NCBI GenBank assembly: GCA_030295235.1
Contig: AP026176.1
Location: forward strand, 310,001 to 374,000
Length of the DNA: 64,000 nt
Reading direction: 5' to 3'
Source of the DNA: Fistulifera solaris
Lineage: Eukaryota
Position 1 is the first letter of the stretch; each line of letters begins with the position of its first letter. The notes beneath the pieces are model-generated. The model was not told where the DNA came from. It worked only from the letters and a program-made list of their open reading frames with translations, and ran no database searches. Below, in pieces: positions 1-43,449 of this stretch. The position numbers and the translations under genes were made by a program.

Positions 1-1236
1 TTCAGGCGATTCGATGGTCGATTCTCGAATGATGACTCTACATTTCCTTGATCAGGACTTGCAGCATTGAGAGCGGGACGATTTCCATGCATGGGCCCGC
101 GAATCAATCCAGGTCGATCCACCGAATGCCGATCGTCAATAATATTACGTTCAGAAGGTAAAGAGCTTCCTCGATCGAGCTGTCGAAAGTTTGGTTGGGT
201 TGATGGGAGCGTAGGTGGAGCTGGAGGAAATGATGCACGCTGCTGTGGAAAGCCACTATCCTGCGGAGGCGGGCGACCTCGTGCAGAAAAAAGATTCAAA
301 ATGTTCAACAGACGATCCAGGATGCATTGATTTTTGTGAAACGGCAGGATAACTCGAGGAATTGTAGGATAGTTCTTGTTTTTGTGGCACAATTTCACCT
401 TCGCTGCCAAAGCTGGGGTTGCTACGAATTCGCTTGGGCTCTGGCGTGTTTGCAAATTGCGGCGGCTCGTTCACTAAGTCACTGTAAGTTCTTTTGGTTT
501 CGGCTTCCGGAAAAGAAGGGCGATGAGAGAAGGCTGGTTGTCCGCGCCCTTCGGTTCCACCTCTTGCCGTGGCAGGAAAGCCACGACCATCTATGGTTCT
601 TCCTCTGGATGATAGTGGCCGCCCTCGTCCTTCAAATCCTCCTCCTCTCGGAGGGAAAGTTCTTCCGCGACCTTCTACCGGAGCGCCTCTAGGCGGAAAA
701 GTACCTCTACCTCCACGGCCCGTGGATGGTGTAGGAAGTCCTGATGAATGATTCGAGCCTAGCTCTTGCAATGCATCCTGATCTGGCGCCCTCCCTCCCA
801 CCCATCGTCCCATCGATGGACCCCGTGCTGGGTAACGTCCGCCCGGTGCTACACCTCTTCCTCTAGTCATCACTGGTGCTCCCCGTTGGGGCGGCAAACC
901 GGTCGAAAATTCATTCGATATCCCATTCTCTGGTCTAGCGCGTAAAGGAGGCGGTCGATGATCTTCGCGTCCCCCGTAACGAGGGCCGAAACGGCCCGGT
1001 TCGCGGCCCCTTCCCCCACGAGGGAACGAACGACCTCTTCGATTAATATCGTCGCCGGTACTTAATGGTTGAAGATGAGAAGGAGGATCGAGCGCTAAGG
1101 ACGCGTAGGAGCCCGCCGACGCCGTTGATGAGTAGCGCTGCATAGCAGGATGGGATTCTCTTCGGGGCGGCGGTGCGTCCTGGATCTCTCCAACTTCGCC
1201 TTCTTCTTGGTTCATCCGTGAAATTGGTGGGGGCAT
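1..1236 (-). CDS. Low-complexity Arg/Gly/Pro-rich (RGG-like) protein, 3' part runs off the window
   Basis: ATG at 1236 opens 326 codons with many GRG/RGG/FPPRG repeats. Similar Pro-rich coding continues below 256 in another frame after an A-run near 290, probably a 1-bp error. Confidence 0.55.
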
Positions 1237-8346: not shown

Positions 8347-9401
8347 ATGACATCGCCACTTGACCGAAATGTTCAACGGCCCACAAATGAATACGTGCTC
8401 GTGAGTGACTTTTGGAATTGTACTCAATGACTATTCGGTTCTGCTGACAGTGCCTATTGCATGTCGTTACAGAATGTAGCTTTCTTATCGTTCTTAGCGT
8501 TTACAACGCTGCAACTCTTTTGCTGTCGTTGCGAAATCACACGCAATGATGGAAGACTGTATAGGTAAGCGAATGTGGCGAGGGCGAAGTCGTCAATCGG
8601 GCTTTCTCACCTGCTTCACCATAAACAGCCATGTATGTTGATGTCATCACATATCTCTTCAATTTTCTGGCGGAGCGCCTGAAGCACAAAGTTTCCGATG
8701 GCAATTTTAACGACTCTAGGAGCGGGCGCTTGTATCGATTGTATCTTGAACTGATTCCCCCTTTTCTAAGCGTGGTAACATTATTGATTGTGACAATACT
8801 CGGGTTGAAAACCGCTATCAGGACATTGCGCGAAGCTCCTAAAGACCAGGGATCTCAGCCGGATATCACCATTATGCTTTGGTTCTCAGGGCTGAATTTA
8901 CTATTGGATTTCTTCAATGTAACGTGCTTTGCCAGAGTTGATCAAGCGATCGGCATATCTCAACTACAGGATCAGTTTAATATTTTCCGCTCGCAGCGCG
9001 ATGAGGGCTCGGAGAAGATGGCTACTGAAACAACAGATCTTCTAGCTAAAATTCGTCGTCACAATGGATGTAAGGCTTGCGACGAAGATGAGATGAGCGT
9101 ATCGTCCGAGGACACCGAAGCAAAAGGAGGTCTCAATCTGAACATGTGCTCAGCCTGGACGCACATCTGCGCCGACACGCTTCGGAGTCTGGCTGTGCTA
9201 GTTGCAGCTAGCTTTGCAACAATATTCCCCAAATTAATTACTCCCGCAGATGCGGATTCATGGGGCTCGATCGTCGTCTCCATTGTAATTTTGGCAAGCC
9301 TCGTTCCATTGTTCGAGGGACTGTACATGACGGCATGTAAAATTAGCGATGTATGGCAGTCAAACTCAAAGCATCACGCTAAGAGGGCAACCACGCATTA
9401 A
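8347..9401 (+). CDS. Cation diffusion facilitator (CDF/ZnT-like) transporter, paralog 1; introns 8401-8472 and 8565-8628
   Basis: Spliced product NEYVLNVAFLSF...AKSHAMMEDCIAMYVDVITYLFN...NLNMCSAWTHICADTLRS, with about 6 hydrophobic helices. One T is missing in the T-run near 8519. Confidence 0.82.
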
Positions 9402-12419: not shown

Positions 12420-13306
12420 AGGGTTAAGTAGGCGCCATGCATGTGGAAAAAAATTACTTGTTCTTCAGGCTGACTCACGGGTTGCACCACTAGGCTTGAC
12501 GTCTCAAGCTTAAACATTGACTATCACTATAATCTTTCGGATATCCTTTCAAGTCAATAAGGTTATAGATGTTCTCGTTTTATTTTGGGTGCGGATCGCC
12601 AAACTATGGCATATTACTCCATCTTCCAACCTAAATAGCCTTTATTTTTTGAAGGATTTTTATCAAATTTTTAGGCTAAAGCCTAAGGCGCTTGGCCACT
12701 TTTGTTACACACTAGATAGAGACAAGTGTCTCGGCGTGATAGGCAGCACAGAACAGGTCTAGCTAGTAGAGCCATGATATGCTGAGCTAAAAAAAAACTA
12801 GAACGTGTTGATACAACGGGAGCCATGTACGATTTTTGCGATAGTACTTGTCGTCCGTATAAGTAACAAATGCTGCTTTCATGTTGAGTCCCATAAGGCT
12901 GTAGCATTTGAATTTTGAATCTGTTCGTTGCGCAGCCGGAAGGGCCTTGGACCACTTGACAATTATTGAGAACTGTAAATACCAGGCGTCAAAGAACGCC
13001 GTCATCAATCATCAATCATCAATCATCAATCATCACACTTCTTGACATGCAAATGCCACTGCCAGCTGCCTGTGTAACAAATTTTACAGTACGAGCACCT
13101 TTAGGCCGACACGTGAATAAAAAGGCGAGTAATGGCCTTTTTCAAGGCTCATGCTGTTGGCCTTTTACTTAAAAAGGGAAGCTGTTTGATGTCGAGGCCC
13201 TTCTGAAAACAACCTGAAAGCCTGTGGAAGCACAGCAAAAATCAGGATCGTCTCACTTTTCTCATCGTTTGTTACTTTCAAGCTAAAGCTGCAAAGAATG
13301 TTAAAC

Positions 13307-14889
13307 ATGGTATCAACTTTCTCTTTCTTCTTGTTGATGGTTTCAGCTGTCTCAGGAGTTTCCGCAGAGAGTCTGTGCACAAACGGACGACTCTTTGTTG
13401 CCGATGCAAACTCTTCATCGGTTCATTATTTTGATCTGGACGGAGAACTCGGGGCGTTGACCGCAACTGGAAAACTCCTTGACGGAATTGCTGAAATTGA
13501 AGGGCAAGCTATATACTCCGTCGGTGACAATGAGATCGCAATTGTCTACCGTGGCGTCGAGACGGCAATGTATGAAGACGGCTCCATCTACTTCTACCGA
13601 GCGGGAACAACCCTTGAATCGCACGGAGACCATGTTGATGTCCAAAAGAGCGAGCCATCTGAGTTGCAGAATGCAAAATTAATTGCGCTCGCGCGACGCA
13701 TATTGTTGAGCACGACGACAAGATCGCTGTCTTCTGTGACGGGTACTTCAACCCGGATCCAAATCAAGCTCAAGTGAACACGACTGTCTACGTCGTCGAC
13801 AAGACTCTCTTCTCGTTCACTGCTGAGCCTACCGCTATTGCGCACTCTGTTGTTCTCGCAGGAAGCCATCACGGGGTTGCTATTCCAGTCGACGATGATC
13901 ATTTGCTAGTGTCAGTTGCCCTTCCTGAACGCGTCGCGCGTGTGGAAAATAGCTCGGCATTGCCAAACGGTTTCGTGGTGCAGGACTACGATGGAAATCT
14001 CCTTCACGATTTAAATGTGGCTGATGACAAAGACCGCTCGTGTGTCGGCTTCCATGGAAGTGCTGCTGTGGAGGGCAAATTGGCGTTGGGATGTGATTCC
14101 TCACATGGAGGGATCTTGTTGGTAGACTATGAGCCAACTTCAGCCGCGTACACATCCCGATCGCTTCTCTACCCAAACGGCTTCGCCGACCACCGTGTGG
14201 GGTCCTTTCTCGAGCACCCCCGTGCGAGCCACGTTATCGGAAACTTCAATAGCGACGTGTCGTTCAACATGTTTGCCTTTGATCCATCAATCGAAAGTAT
14301 CTCGGATAACCACATGCTTTCTCTACCCGCCAAGGCATGCTCTTCGGCATATGAGCAGGCCGAAGCGAAAGTTATCTTTACTTTGCTGGCAACGGGAGTA
14401 GTCCAAATCTACAAGTTTCAGGATACTTGGGAGCTCTTGAGTCAAGTTGAAGTCATTCCAGGCATGACAGACTGCACCGCCGCGTTCATGGCAACAGGCT
14501 ATGGTCAAGCGTTTGTGTTCGAGAAAGCTGCCATGAAAATGTACGCCATTGATGCGACTGAGCTTTTGCACAGCACTCAAGACGAAGTCACAGCGACAGC
14601 CCGGGCAGATTCCACGACTGGACTTAAAGTTTCAACCACCGATTTAACGTTCATGCCCAACTCTGCTGCTGTATCTGGTGCACCGGTTGGCTATGCATGC
14701 GTTGCGGAAGAACACCATGATCACTCGGCGCCCGCTGCAGCCCCGACGGCATCTGGTGGTAATGCTCCCACGACACCTGAAAACAGTGCTCCCGTGGCCA
14801 GCGGAAGCACCAATAACGAATCGTTTGCAAACCACGTCGGTGCAGGGATGTTCGTGTCGGCGCTCTGCGTTGTAGCCATGATAATCTGA
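13307..14889 (+). CDS. Secreted, probably GPI-anchored AztD-like (zinc metallochaperone, beta-propeller) protein; 1-bp frameshift at ~13680
   Basis: Signal MVSTFSFFLLMVSAVSGVSA, then ESHGDHVD, THIVEHDDKIAVFCDG, GSHHGVAIP, CVGFHGSA, LGCD and EEHHDH. A P/A/T linker precedes the terminal hydrophobic segment. Restoring one T joins ORFs 13298 and 13774. Confidence 0.72.
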
Positions 14890-15089
14890 GTTTAAGATAT
14901 TAGTATACGTTGACAATATGAATGTGAATCGTTGGCAAGTAGCTTTCGACCGTAAACAGTCATTTTTTGACAGTGATGGATGAGTCGCACAATACTGTAA
15001 AACAATTTTGCTCCTTTGCGTTATAAGCATGCCCAAATACGCCTTGTGATCCCATCATCATTTTCTAATCGAGTGCCTTCAAACCATCA

Positions 15090-16601
15090 CTAAAGATCGT
15101 TAAAAACCCACCATTCTTTTCTGAATGTGTATTGCTGTGTAGATGTTGTCACAAGGTGTGTCGCATTTCTCTTCGTGCTCGGCCTTCCGTTGCGCTTGCT
15201 GCTTTTCTTGCTCGTGCTACTTCTTTCCCTAGTAATGGGTATTTCGTTTTGAAGACTTTCGCTCTTTTTCCCTCTCGACCGCTTTGTTTTGTTTGAATTG
15301 TCTTCTCCGCTATCAGCACTTGCACGTTTGTCTGCACTATCCTTGTTGCTGTGAGTCTTTGTACGACTTGTCTGACTGGCATGTTTTCCACTCCTTTCGT
15401 TACGCTTCTTTGCACTCGAGAATCTACGCGGCGATCGGAACGATGGTTGTATGGCAGGTTGAAGGGGAGACGCAGCGGGAGGGTCGTCCGGCGGTGTCAA
15501 AGAGGGGGCCGTATCGTGCGGCGGTGTCACAGAAGGGACTGTACCGTTCGGTGGAGTCAAAGAGGGTGCTACCGGCGCAATGGGAGCATTGGGAGGATCG
15601 TTCGGCGGAGCCAAGGGCGCAGCAATTGGTGAAATTGGAGCATTTGTTGTTGATTCGACCGGAGACAGCGGTATTGGAGAACTCGTAGCAACGGGTAGAT
15701 CAATCGGAGCGACCGAAGGAGCCAGTGATTGATTAGGAGCTGTTGTACCACAGCTGCTGGGTGGATTCGATGACAATTCACAAATTCCAGCTTCAATAAA
15801 CTCGGTATATTTTGTCACGTCGGTGTAAATCTGCGGCGCAATCGACATGCAACTTTCCGTAAAAGAGAATATTCCATACTGTATATCTTCGGTAGCATGA
15901 ATCAATGGACCGCCTTCATCGTCGAAACACGATCCTATCGCAGCTGTTACACTCCCCGCACATATTTGTGAGTTCGAATCCAATCGTTCGGAATACACAT
16001 TAATACATTCATCAAAATCCAAAACATTGATTTGCGCCTCCAGAAGCAAAGCGGAAAATTCGGTATCATTGAACAGCCCAAAACCCATCACCCGAAGTGG
16101 TTCATTGACCGCCGGTCGTGAAGTTGTCGCTATTGTCACAGTCGGTTCTGTTCGAGGTGCATCAATTTTGACCAGCATGATATCGTTTGCCCTGGATATT
16201 TCGTTGAATTCCGGGTGTTGTAGCCGTTCTGTCGCAATAAGCTGCGTTCCACTTTTCCATTGAACGCTTCCAATATAAGGGTTTGCAGTTTGAGCCGCCG
16301 GACAACTTGCGACTGTTAGTATGATATCATCGTGAATCAAAGTGCCTCCACAGGTACTGTCATCATCCCCGGGAAAATGCACAAAATATGGATACGTCAA
16401 GTTATCCGCCACCGGAGTTCCTCCAATAATATTCGGAAGAACGAAACCTGCAGCTGGCTCAACATCCGGTTGAAACCGGAAGACGGAATCGGTCTGACCC
16501 GCGCGAGGTGCCGTATTCACAGACGGCCTTCGAAATACATTCGGTCGAAGAGACGAACGAGGCCTGTTCTTTATTACTGGCGGAGTAATCAAGGGAAGCA
16601 T
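15090..16601 (-). CDS. Trypsin-like (S1) serine-protease homolog with broken catalytic triad, Pro-rich repeats and basic tail; N-terminus uncertain
   Basis: IIGG, CGGTLIHDDIILTVASC, NDIMLVK, QICAG and SCFDDEGGPL, followed by APSLTPP-like repeats. Confidence 0.8.
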   Translation of the reverse strand: MLPLITPPVIKNRPRSSLRPNVFRRPSVNTAPRAGQTDSVFRFQPDVEPAAGFVLPNIIGGTPVADNLTYPYFVHFPGDDDSTCGGTLIHDDIILTVASCPAAQTANPYIGSVQWKSGTQLIATERLQHPEFNEISRANDIMLVKIDAPRTEPTVTIATTSRPAVNEPLRVMGFGLFNDTEFSALLLEAQINVLDFDECINVYSERLDSNSQICAGSVTAAIGSCFDDEGGPLIHATEDIQYGIFSFTESCMSIAPQIYTDVTKYTEFIEAGICELSSNPPSSCGTTAPNQSLAPSVAPIDLPVATSSPIPLSPVESTTNAPISPIAAPLAPPNDPPNAPIAPVAPSLTPPNGTVPSVTPPHDTAPSLTPPDDPPAASPLQPAIQPSFRSPRRFSSAKKRNERSGKHASQTSRTKTHSNKDSADKRASADSGEDNSNKTKRSRGKKSESLQNEIPITRERSSTSKKSSKRNGRPSTKRNATHLVTTSTQQYTFRKEWWVFNDL

Positions 16602-20063: not shown

Positions 20064-21105
20064 TCAAACCTCGATGCTGGGAAGAGGTGGGTTTTTGTGC
20101 AAAGTCTGCAACTGTCGTGCCGTGATCATTAGTCCGCGTAGGAGTGGAAGAACACTGATGAAAATGATAATCGACACGACAATGGCGGCTATTGAGTCAG
20201 CCACAGCACCATCTATGCTCGAAACTAAGGTTGCAATTATGGCAGCAACGAGAACGGCTGTGGATCGCATAGTATCAGCGCAAACGTGCTGTAGTAGTTC
20301 AAAGAGAGCGTGTGTAAGAGGATGATACTCAGTACTCATTTTACAAGCTACTTCGGCAGGAAGAACTCACCGTCCATGCACTGCACATGTTCAAATTCAC
20401 CAGCTCAATATCATCGTTCTCGTCATAGACAACTCGTTTATCGGAATGCAGCAGACTTGACGACTCGTTGACTGTTTCCTCAGGATAACCCATTTCCACC
20501 GTTCGCTTGCGCTGAGATGCTTTTATTATATCAAGTCCATAGATTGAATTCGCTTGAGCAAAACAAGTGACATTCACAATATCTAGTAGAAGATTTGCTC
20601 CTGAAAACGAAAGCATAATGGGTACCGACACGTCGTCTTCTTCGTCGGCAGTCGATGATCCGAAAAGTGTAGAGAATGCCTCGTTCAGCGTCATGACTGT
20701 AACCGCAATCAATGTCATGATACTCAAAGCAGGCGGAATCAGCTCGAGATAAAGTCTTTGTAGTTCTCTTCCGTAAGTTCTTTGTTTCGCGGGTAACTCC
20801 AATTCGCTTGCGGAAAAAGGCCGTGTTTTAATCCGCTCCGCCATCAAATTAAACAAATAAGTCAAAGCGTCCACAGACATTGCTTCCGAATCCGCGAGCA
20901 TCGCTTGGCTGTTCGCAATCAAGGCAAAGACGGCTTGGATGAGTAAAAAGCCGACGAAACTCAAAAACGCCACGTTTAGCACATATTCGTTCGACAGACT
21001 GTCCGCATCGTCCGAAGGCTTCTTCTCCGTTACAAAGCTGTTGTTTTCACTCCCTTCGTCATCGGCAATGCTGCCAAAGGATCGTTCGACTTCTCTCGGT
21101 GCCAT
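20064..21105 (-). CDS. Cation diffusion facilitator transporter, paralog 2; intron 20289-20370
   Basis: NEYVLNVAFLSF, ANSQAMLADSEAMSVDALTYLFN, RLYLELIPP and NLNMCSAWT|HVCADTMRS. Clearly homologous to 8347-9401. Confidence 0.85.
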
Positions 21106-21567
21106 TTTTCAGAAGAAGAAGGGAAAAAAAAATAGGAATGACAACGACGTTCGTGCAAATGCCCGATGCGCCAATAATTTGTGTTCTTCGTTGTTTATCA
21201 TTGCACGAGACACGAGACACATTGCGGTTTTATGGGACGGGAAACGAACCGCCACGCGCCGACAGTAGCACGCGACTTCAACTTTGTCTGACGTCGAGAG
21301 ACGTGTACAAATTCACCATAAGTGATGATCGCGGGAAAACGTCATGGGATAATTACATAAAGGTTTTAGTACCGTTTCATGGGACCGGCGCGTGCTCGGC
21401 ACACGAACTCCAATCGTACGCGGATGGATTGTTGCACTCGTGACTGAAGATTCACCGAAACTAGAGTGAAACGAGATACTCGGTATCGTTGTGCACAATT
21501 GCTATTCATTGGAAAAGGGACGGTCTAGGGAGCTGGATGTGAGCATAGACGGTTACAAAGGGAAAAG

Positions 21568-41499: not shown

Positions 41500-43046
41500 A
41501 ATTGTCGGCTCTGTCGCGATTTGCCGATTCCTCCAGTCCAAGCGAGGATTGCCAGGAGCTACGGCAATCGAGTGAAATCCGTCCCGTTCCTTGAATTCAC
41601 CAACTAAATGCGTAAACCTCAGTTCTTCTTCGTTTTTAGCTTGTTGATTCTCCAATTCGTATCCATCCTTGTAAAATGTAGCCGACGGCCAAACATTCTG
41701 AACTGCTCTTTGTTCAAATAAAGAAACTCCCGTCATGGCGGCCGATACATCAATATGAACACGGAGTTCCTTGTCGGTGGGTCGCACTGACTCTAATTCT
41801 TGTTCCAGCAATCGCATTGCTTGACCTCCCGGATAATTCCATCGCGACACTGCCACAAAGAGAGAACTCGCAACAAACGAAACAATACAAGCTAGAATCC
41901 CCAGTCCAAACAAGAATTTTCCGACGCGCGTCGTTGTCGACGACTTGTCTTTTCTCCGAGGGTCGCGCCAGACGCTCCAATCGTTGCAATCCCGCGGCAG
42001 CGCACAAATTGAAGAGAGGCAATACGGGAAACAGAAATCGCATTTCCTTGTGCCCTAACAGCGAATACAAAGCCACGAATCCCAGTGCTGGTAATAAGAA
42101 TGGCAAGTAGGTCGGATCAATCCACGGCGGCCGCATGGGTGGCCGTTGATTTTCCAGTACCACCATTTCGATAGCAACCAATTGTTCCGGAAGACGCACG
42201 ACACTCCACGGCACCAAAAAATCCCGTCAGCAACAATGCTTTCGGCAAAGCCGCCGTCCAATACCAGTGCCACGCACTGACACCCCAATCCGAAGATTTG
42301 TTGAGAACCGTATTATAATAGAAGACTCTCATTTCCGGCCATACCCATTTTTGCCACATGAGCGAATCGAAAGGAACCGTTAGGATGGCCGCCGCTATCA
42401 ATGTGAGAATACCGATACGCAAGGCTTTTGTGACAGTCAGTTGTCGAGTGATCAACCACGACAAGCCCACCGTAAACAGCAACAAGATCAAATCACACCG
42501 CAGCACGGCCGCCGCCAACACCAAACAAACCGCCGCATACGAAACACGCCGTTGCATCCAAAAGGCGTAACAATGCAAGGTCAAAATTGTCGCGGTACTA
42601 TTGGGCAACATCCGACTGGCATAAAAGGGCAAATGAAATTGACAGGCCGTGACAATCAACAAGTACGCCGAGACCGCCGTCGCATCCGCAAAACGAAACC
42701 AGGCGTGCAATGTCACAATCAATTGCGACAGACGTGCCAGGGTTTGTATCAATCGCGGATGTTCGGCCAAATCGTACGCGGGGAATATCAGCAGACGAAG
42801 GAATTGACAGATCCGACTCCACAGCAAGGGCCCCAGAAAGGATCGCGGCACGACACCCGGATATTGTAAATGATCATAATTCAACGTCGTGTTACTGTCA
42901 AAGAAGGACGGAATTCCTTCATAAAACAGATCGTGTGTCGCTTGGATTCCAAAGGACTCTTCGACCTTGGAGAAGGGACAGGCGAATAAACTATACAACA
43001 TCGTGGCGGTGAGAAAGCATTTGGAGAATTGGTGAAGTGAAAGCAT
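41470..43046 (-). CDS. ALG12: Dol-P-Man alpha-1,6-mannosyltransferase ALG12; frameshifts ~42217 and ~41917
   Basis: PFSKVEESFGIQATHD, YDHLQYPGVVPRSFLGP, FHLPFYASRMLPN, FYYNTVLNKSSDWG, HKEMRF, NYPGG and VHIDVSAAMTGVSLF. Confidence 0.92.
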
Positions 43047-43449
43047 CACTTCTTTCTTGCTATAGTCTTTTTGTGTTGAAGAAAAAAGCGGCGTAGCGTA
43101 CTGCTTGTGTGGCTGTTTCCTTAGTTTGGAATCATTCTCTTCTTAAATGAAGGTATGAAACAAAAAGCAATAAAGAATGCTTTGCAAGTCGTTGCGGGTT
43201 GCGGATCATCGCGTTCTCATCGAATGCCGTTCGGTTGCATTTATGGATAAGCAGCAGACAGGTTTAAGAACTTCGAGTAGTTTTTTCAGCCTGTGGCTTT
43301 TGGAATGAAAGACGGACACAACCATTAGTTTCGACGTCCGAGTTACCGACACCGACGAACCGTCGTACAGAAACCGTGACCCGATTAAGGTTCTGGCTGC
43401 TCAAGTGCGTGAAAAGCGTAGCTCGTTTCTCACTCATGCGCATTTGATT

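Follow-up and report, generated by a model that had tools for sequence, protein, structure and literature searches.

A diatom-encoded relative of the bacterial zinc chaperone AztD, probably tethered to the cell surface

The window analysed here, a DNA stretch of 64,000 nucleotides taken as a whole, encodes a protein that is a true but distant relative of the zinc chaperone AztD and gives this bacterial family a new, eukaryotic form. Our preferred reading, which we give a probability of roughly 0.6, is that the gene specifies a secreted, tethered AztD-type propeller that binds zinc—perhaps also cobalt or cadmium—and feeds a metal importer, probably a ZIP transporter. After entry of the protein into the ER, its C-terminal hydrophobic segment would be swapped for a GPI anchor at a small residue of the preceding stalk, and the stalk, being flexible, would then hold the propeller on the outside of the plasma membrane. 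In this position the propeller would bind Zn(II), possibly along with Co or Cd, and pass the metal from its exposed site 2 to an importer in the membrane. By analogy with the zinc hand-off from AztD to AztC, this importer would most likely be a ZIP transporter. Taken alone, the hand-off step is a tentative proposal with somewhat less than an even chance of being correct.

The whole coding sequence (13307..14889, + strand) comprises 527 codons plus a stop, is intron-less and, as it stands in the window, lacks one base. Its translation changes frame a single time, from frame A (13307..13678), which extends through ESHGDHVDVQKSEPSELQNAK, to frame B (13681..14886). The original prediction had attributed this to a missing T at ~13680; the missing base instead sits in an A-run at 13675..13678 (+ strand), as revealed by comparison with public contigs. 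When contigs from four runs and three studies were aligned to 13250-14950, five of the five that cover the site carried one base more than the window at 13674/13675. The extra base is an A in four of them (X1, one contig; X2, two; X4, one), bringing the run to five A, and a G in a second X1 contig, which belongs to a diverged second copy of the gene. Save for the extra base, a contig of 2479 nt equals the window over 596 bases. Given the agreement of all five contigs, we conclude that the gene is intact and that the window contains a homopolymer undercall, that is, an assembly error. The frame change at 13675-13680 might also be taken as the mark of a frameshifted pseudogene, but, apart from the contig evidence, both frames are free of stops and residues are conserved throughout, leaving this explanation with a very small chance indeed. 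With an X at the break, the read-through amounts to 527 residues without a stop and aligns to the intact homolog P0001 (88% identical) with zero internal gaps. The gene therefore harbors neither intron nor lesion, and its intron-free nature, as originally predicted, is upheld.

Upstream of the presumed start, an in-frame ATG at 13298 (+ strand) offers an alternative; in P0004, the homolog annotated for Fistulifera solaris (90% identical), translation begins at the position that corresponds to 13307. P0004 itself is without 131 residues near its C-terminus, a gap that looks like an artefact of the gene model. The second copy found in the public runs is ~10% diverged, with 53 differing letters over 540 bases in X2 and 83 over 633 in X1. 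Its depth in X2 about equals that of the first copy, and the two observations fit a pair of homeologous copies. Within the window, a profile scan of all six frames detected no second copy. A contig joint that skips 589 bases (13806 to 14396) was considered as an intron and rejected, as one side measures 27 bases and the ends are non-canonical. Although presumed to be RNA, the runs may be DNA, given a contig that extends to ~1.9 kb beyond the gene on its upstream side.

Neighboring open reading frames of the window encode eukaryotic domains (ribosomal L22e, THO2, HSF, ankyrin and protein kinases) and the nearest named relative of the window protein belongs to the raphid diatom F. solaris, together arguing for a diatom nuclear locus and against bacterial contamination. 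A scan of 39 window ORFs found no AztC- or ZnuA-type partner and no ABC or ZIP domain, a point against our preferred reading, although genes of a diatom nucleus would not be expected to cluster as in an operon. The locus thus differs from bacterial aztD loci in having no ABC transporter or AztC partner within the window: nearly half of the bacterial AztD members neighbor a ZnuA-type binding protein or ABC transporter, according to the text of PMC6689063.

Kinship with AztD emerged from sequence searches of different depth. Neither half of the gene had a Pfam match above threshold. The NCBIfam AztD model (NF038015) matched the 408-residue frame-B piece at E 5.7e-13, with 48.3 bits against a curated cut-off of 400. 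As this score lies far under the cut-off, the window protein represents a distant branch and is not AztD in NCBI's narrow sense. The single sequence matched that of the Citrobacter AztD crystal structure 6cmk at E 1.2e-5. A family profile built from 11 diatom relatives (A1) retrieved both AztD crystal sequences, one at E 3.8e-19 and the other at 2.2e-14, and when this profile was run against the PDB, nothing besides AztD matched at E<=0.001. By these profile matches, the motif agreement with AztD is far beyond chance.

To place the fold, an AlphaFold model was built for P0001 from the alignment of 11 relatives and stands in for the window protein. It comprises an all-beta propeller at residues 14-447 (pLDDT 78, pTM 0.79). 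In a Foldseek search with this model, ranks 1-9 were all AztD chains (E 2.7e-21 to 2.4e-17, TM 0.80-0.82), followed by the first non-AztD match at E 6.8e-10 and TM 0.5; the best structural match is AztD and no unrelated propeller. VIA-align superposed the model on AztD with Z 36.8-37.4 and an rmsd of 2.6-3.1 A over 358-364 residues at 22-24% identity, compared with Z 21.9 for the next-best fold. The best matches in the ESM Atlas were a eukaryotic cluster (0.83) and an entry named 'Metallochaperone AztD' (0.78), both of lead-level value only. By this model, the window protein is predicted to have the eight-bladed beta-propeller fold of AztD, bounded by the first and last conserved Cys (13376..14700, + strand; residues 24-465 of the read-through). 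The AztD-like beta-propeller that had been proposed from the letters of the gene is hence corroborated by the NCBIfam family, the crystal-sequence matches and the predicted fold.

The protein is not the lone oddity it had been taken for: an exhaustive profile search, bacteria included, recovered 515 representative clusters at E<=1e-3, of which 258 reached <=1e-10 and 109 <=1e-30. Few members carry a name; the named diatom members come from Fistulifera, Nitzschia, Amphora and Cylindrotheca, all of them raphid, and further named eukaryotic members are the cryptophyte Rhodomonas, an MMETSP transcript and Diplonema; Poribacteria and Dadabacteria are the named bacterial ones. We computed a FastTree phylogeny of 98 rows covering >=330 profile positions, omitting P0004 and keeping two weakly matching Dyadobacter-like rows as the root, with the rest of such rows left out. 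All algal rows formed one clade of 63 (support 98) nested among bacterial-type rows, most rows being classed as algal or bacterial by their features and position and not from a record. This clade, spread over diatoms, a cryptophyte and further marine protists, has 4 rows in a Rhodomonas group, 5 in an MMETSP group and 54 in a diatom-like group. The tree is consistent with the bacterial origin that had been suggested and, with a quick tree method, a weak root and a long-branch warning at the base, fits a single bacterial-to-alga transfer followed by much duplication. An algal ancestor may have acquired the AztD family from a bacterial source, with later diversification in diatoms. Diplonema was placed outside the algal clade, among bacterial-type rows; since they branch apart from that clade, the Diplonema propellers are probably a separate acquisition.

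Zinc coordination by the Paracoccus denitrificans protein (PdAztD) has been described for two sites. Site 1 lies in the pore and consists of His124, His167, His218 and a water molecule; site 2, on an exposed hairpin, comprises His99, His102, Asp104 and the C-terminal His408, with Gly100 conserved, and a disulfide joins Cys214 to Cys231 (text of PMC6689063). In the same account, zinc is transferred from AztD to AztC from site 2 only, and the function of site 1 is given as unknown (Neupane et al. 2019, PMC6689063). When the family profile was aligned to PdAztD, His99-Gly-x-His102-x-Asp104 fell on HGDHVD (within ESHGDHVD; 13622..13639, + strand), making this stretch the counterpart of site 2. His124 of site 1 corresponds to the His of ATH (13699..13701, + strand; in ATHIVEH..AVFCDG), and AHHG of AztD to SHHG, so that the second His of the HH in SHHGVAIP (13867..13872, + strand) takes the place of His167. 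Further downstream, Cys214...His218 align with C-V-G-F-H of CVGFHGSA (Cys 14041-14043, His 14053-14055) and Cys231 with the Cys of LGCD (14092-14094), the whole CVGFHGSA...LGCD region spanning 14041..14094 (+ strand).

The seventh ligand, His408, was located by structure. The structural alignment pairs residues 14..453 of the model with 31..405 of the 408 chain residues and ends with model 453-454 on chain 402-405. A His cluster, EEHHDH (14707..14724, + strand), lies 5-8 residues past the last aligned strand, the location of His408 in AztD, and in the profile alignment the His-rich C-terminal stretch of CkAztD aligns at EEHHDH. Because the structural alignment ends where His408 lies, we infer that EEHHDH is the likely counterpart of this residue, the fourth ligand of site 2 in AztD. 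It had been listed as an extra motif, which on this comparison it is not. In the family, all seven side-chain ligand positions of PdAztD as well as the disulfide find a match, that of His408 by way of this deduced equivalence. Judged from these alignments, both zinc sites and the disulfide of AztD are conserved in the window protein, with the C-terminal His cluster as the likely equivalent of His408. The HGDH, HHGVAVP and C-x-G-x-HG-x-A motifs, named as AztD hallmarks in the original prediction, are indeed ligand motifs of AztD by the text of PMC6689063 and by the profile alignment. Translation of both frames likewise recovered every sequence feature that had been listed, in the order given, with NCARATHIVEH...SHHGVAIP...CVGFHGSA...LGCD...CVAEEHHDH in frame B followed by the stalk and the hydrophobic end.

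Conservation across the family is not the same for the two sites. Site 1 histidines are present in 62 of the 63 algal-clade rows: the counterpart of His124 occurs in 62 (and in 32/33 bacterial-type rows), the second His of SHHG, corresponding to His167, likewise in 62 (33/33 bacterial-type rows), and the counterparts of Cys214, His218 and Cys231 in 63, 62 and 62, respectively. The two site 2 His residues are found in 50 and 36 of these 63 rows. After correction for relatedness, the idea that site 2 and the C-terminal His cluster are lost together found no support (independent pairs, median p 1). The algal clade also conserves six further cysteines: four do not occur in bacterial-type rows, and two are only partly shared with them. 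Their pattern suggests three additional disulfides, one joining the N- and C-terminal strands, and fits an extracellular protein.

How such a protein might reach and hold the surface can be read from its two ends. The N-terminus resembles a signal peptide (MVSTFSFFLLMVSAVSGVSA, then ES; 13307..13366, + strand); by inspection it has a hydrophobic core together with a cleavage motif made of small residues. Plastid signals of diatoms follow the rule of an aromatic residue at +1; as the window protein has none there, its N-terminus is unlike a plastid signal. At the other end, the His cluster gives way to a Pro/Ala/Thr/Ser stalk (14725..14835, + strand), predicted to be disordered (pLDDT <50 at the equivalent residues 458-506 of the P0001 model) and ending in ASGSTNNES and the short spacer FANH; this stretch would hold the candidate GPI attachment site. 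It is followed by a 17-residue hydrophobic C-terminal segment, VGAGMFVSALCVVAMII (14836..14886, + strand), a candidate GPI signal or, alternatively, a terminal membrane helix, with no residue behind it before the stop at 14887-14889. Small residues, a short spacer and a terminal hydrophobic stretch make up the classical layout of a GPI signal, and the window protein displays this layout as ASGSTNNES / FANH / 17 hydrophobic residues / stop. From this arrangement, the protein is probably GPI-anchored.

Tails of the relatives were classed by a crude, ad hoc hydropathy rule in which a GPI-like end has its hydrophobic segment <=6 residues from the C-terminus and <=1 charge in the last 12; by this rule, 30 of the 63 algal-clade rows, the window's group among them, have a GPI-like C-terminus. 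In another 18, a helix is followed by 8-45 residues of charged tail, and most of these rows have an extra domain of ~110 residues; the remaining 15 are borderline, truncated or Cys-rich in the tail ('other'). One member of the diatom clade (P0021) has a Hint domain in place of other tethers. The occurrence of GPI-like tails, transmembrane helices and a Hint domain argues for tethering as a recurrent theme of the family. The same propeller might, however, carry in its last 17 residues a plain C-terminal membrane helix, or be released to the medium or cell wall. A helix is predicted at residues 504-516 of the P0001 model, and the 18 close paralogs show that this family does make use of genuine transmembrane helices followed by cytosolic tails. 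Yet in the window protein nothing follows the hydrophobic stretch and no positive charges flank it, and directly upstream lie the small-residue cluster and short spacer—a cluster widespread in the family just before the tail and part of the pattern seen in the 30 GPI-like relatives. We regard a plain helix or a released form as unlikely, though with a chance well worth keeping in mind.

Set beside AztD (P. denitrificans and Citrobacter koseri; PDB 6ck1, 6cmk, 6n01), the GPI-anchored protein we favor would thus combine old and new parts. Common to both are the propeller fold (Z ~37), the 3-His pore site, the H-G-x-H-x-D hairpin, the His-rich C-terminal end, the disulfide and, for the window protein as far as its sequence tells, an extracytoplasmic location. 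In contrast to AztD, which is free or a lipoprotein, the window protein derives from a eukaryotic nuclear gene with a eukaryotic signal peptide and possesses six further conserved Cys, a stalk and a GPI-like tail.

Two surface proteins of diatoms invite comparison. ISIP1 is described with a signal peptide, a single predicted beta-propeller and a C-terminal membrane anchor (PMC3491386, PMC5955625), an outline that matches the window protein and would allow it to be a diverged ISIP1 serving iron or siderophore uptake. In these descriptions, however, ISIP1 has seven blades and a cysteine-rich center, and its transmembrane helix leads into a cytosolic tail that carries an endocytosis motif; none of these features is found in the window protein, devoid as it is of a cytosolic tail. 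Moreover, no ISIP1-named, Phaeodactylum or Thalassiosira protein appeared among the 12, 38 and 42 matches of three word-indexed searches. With ISIP1 judged by its description only, we hold this identity to be quite improbable. ZCRP-B, by the text of PMC9010474, responds to zinc and cobalt in marine diatoms, is homologous to NikA and bears a membrane helix at its N-terminus; it is the sole published candidate for a zinc surface ligand. The role proposed for it, in which an extracellular ligand of bacterial descent is tethered to the membrane and concentrates Zn in the vicinity of ZIP transporters (PMC9010474), is the one we consider for the window protein, but ZCRP-B is a NikA-type solute-binding protein anchored at its N-terminus, whereas the window protein is a propeller with a C-terminal tether. 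Pfam and PDB searches gave no sign of a sequence relation to ZCRP-B or the solute-binding fold, the PDB and Foldseek matches being to propellers and AztD. The distinction from ZCRP-B drawn in the original prediction therefore holds, as far as that protein is characterized in PMC9010474.

The partners to which AztD-like propellers are joined bear on which metal is handled, and to what end. A Pfam scan of 16 long profile matches identified bacterial fusions to ZnuA in five and to ZinT in two. A eukaryotic, extracytoplasmic example is KAJ9458053.1 of Diplonema papillatum ('Histidine-rich membrane protein KE4-like'; 2432 aa), in which at least four AztD-like propellers precede a ZIP domain (2114-2422; Pfam Zip, E 5e-52) that follows them without a spacer, all within a single annotated gene model. 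The diatom profile matches this protein four times at full length, with 38-70 bits each. It thus has its propellers in tandem and fused to ZIP, while the window protein consists of a single propeller with a tail. All fusion partners with a known transport role (ZIP, ZnuA and ZinT) are components of zinc uptake.

This bears on a reading in which the metal sites are kept for another metal or another role, such as surface buffering or sensing, detoxification of Cu or Cd, or an enzymatic activity. Three His plus water in the pore is the geometry of a catalytic zinc, and the function of site 1 is described as unknown in AztD itself (PMC6689063). The transmembrane paralogs retain site 1, and just 2 of 18 hold both site 2 His residues; site 1 alone must therefore be useful. 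In addition, two paralogous cation-efflux (CDF) genes flank the window gene (8625-9401, + strand; 20064-21108, − strand), a suggestive arrangement, although it may be due to chance. Against this stand the uptake-related fusion partners and the complete transfer site 2 of the window protein. On balance, we think a different metal or role rather unlikely, and continue to favor zinc capture on behalf of an importer.

Extending this, algae and marine protists might have rewired the bacterial AztD to ZIP importers, giving rise to a two-step 'capture and hand-off' mode of zinc uptake at the cell surface, with at least three forms of tether for the propeller (GPI-like tail, helix or Hint domain) and, in Diplonema, its outright fusion to the importer. 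We put this forward as a conjecture that we would not yet bet on, with odds moderately against it.

Literature searches on the protein, the locus tags and the Diplonema accession yielded no printed description of an AztD-like protein in diatoms or algae. Among the AztD papers listed, no title or abstract start dealt with algae or other eukaryotic phytoplankton, and the 577 sequences mentioned in the text of the AztD paper are all bacterial (Neupane et al. 2019, PMC6689063). Searches for a diatom GPI-anchored zinc beta-propeller returned nothing relevant, and those for GPI-anchored proteins in Phaeodactylum nothing usable. The one paper retrieved for AztD together with diatoms uses 'AZTD' for Arizona Test Dust. 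Within these searches, the initial impression that no such algal protein had been described was confirmed.

Surface waters contain little zinc, and phytoplankton can induce a high-affinity uptake of the metal whose molecular basis is known only in part. The window protein is a candidate for the algal capture of this scarce metal at the cell surface. It would add a second surface protein family, unrelated to ZCRP-B, with the assets of a solved bacterial prototype and a natural ZIP fusion; and since that prototype identifies the ligand residues, work on point mutants, metal binding and the kinetics of uptake could be planned without delay. The finding extends AztD, so far bacterial only, to eukaryotes and illustrates how a periplasmic chaperone may be refitted for the eukaryotic plasma membrane. 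If the rewiring to ZIP importers is true, the family would supply the high-affinity zinc ligand still missing for benthic diatoms, and with it the first known eukaryotic extracellular metallochaperone.

Public sequencing runs X1 and X2, whose contigs were aligned to window 13250-14950, contained a second, ~10% diverged copy of the AztD-like gene region, present at about equal depth in run X2, which fits an allodiploid genome carrying two homeologs. The public gene model of the homolog P0004 (Fistulifera solaris FisN_29Lh063) lacks 131 residues where the window has a continuous ORF, and the gap is probably a wrongly predicted intron. A 15-residue insertion at residues ~408-423 of the intact homolog P0001 (window ~14545-14610) was exclusive to the Fistulifera-like group; in the structural model, it is predicted with lower confidence to form two short helices located between two strands of the last blades.

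Conserved Cys-rich tails replace the hydrophobic tail in the family members P0010, P0013, P0039, and P0066, as well as in P0025, P0027, and P0175; one tail type has the C-terminal end ...GECGFFRRLLNMGGC, and another resembles a small knottin. In the diatom-clade protein P0021 (757 aa), the AztD-like propeller precedes a Hint (hedgehog-type autoprocessing) domain at residues 528-706, which could provide a third route to propeller lipidation or release. A further paralog group, represented by 13 aligned proteins of 587-707 aa (alignment A2), retained the three-His pore site (site 1) while mostly missing the exposed hairpin site (site 2), and gained a conserved ~110-residue domain, a run of acidic residues, a transmembrane helix, and a cytosolic tail containing charged residues.

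Among bacterial relatives, six (P0085, P0090, P0119, P0131, P0142, and P0158) combine the AztD-like propeller with ZnuA and/or ZinT in one chain; such fusions were not found in the sections of the AztD paper (PMC6689063) that were consulted.

Within the window, the convergent neighbor of the AztD-like gene is a trypsin-like serine protease (15090-16601, − strand; Pfam Trypsin, E 2.9e-30) with a long C-terminal extension, first Pro-rich and then Ser/Lys/Arg-rich. Farther away, an ORF at 42120-43142 (− strand) was assigned, at family level, to the Alg9-like mannosyltransferases (Glyco_transf_22), a family to which GPI mannosyltransferases also belong. Finally, two cation-efflux genes (CDF, Pfam PF01545), paralogs of each other, lie one on either side of the AztD-like gene: ~4 kb upstream (8625-9401, + strand) and ~5 kb downstream (20064-21108, − strand; with a single short intron near 20341-20366). 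Together with the AztD-like gene, this pair may constitute a small metal-homeostasis neighborhood or, alternatively, a chance arrangement.
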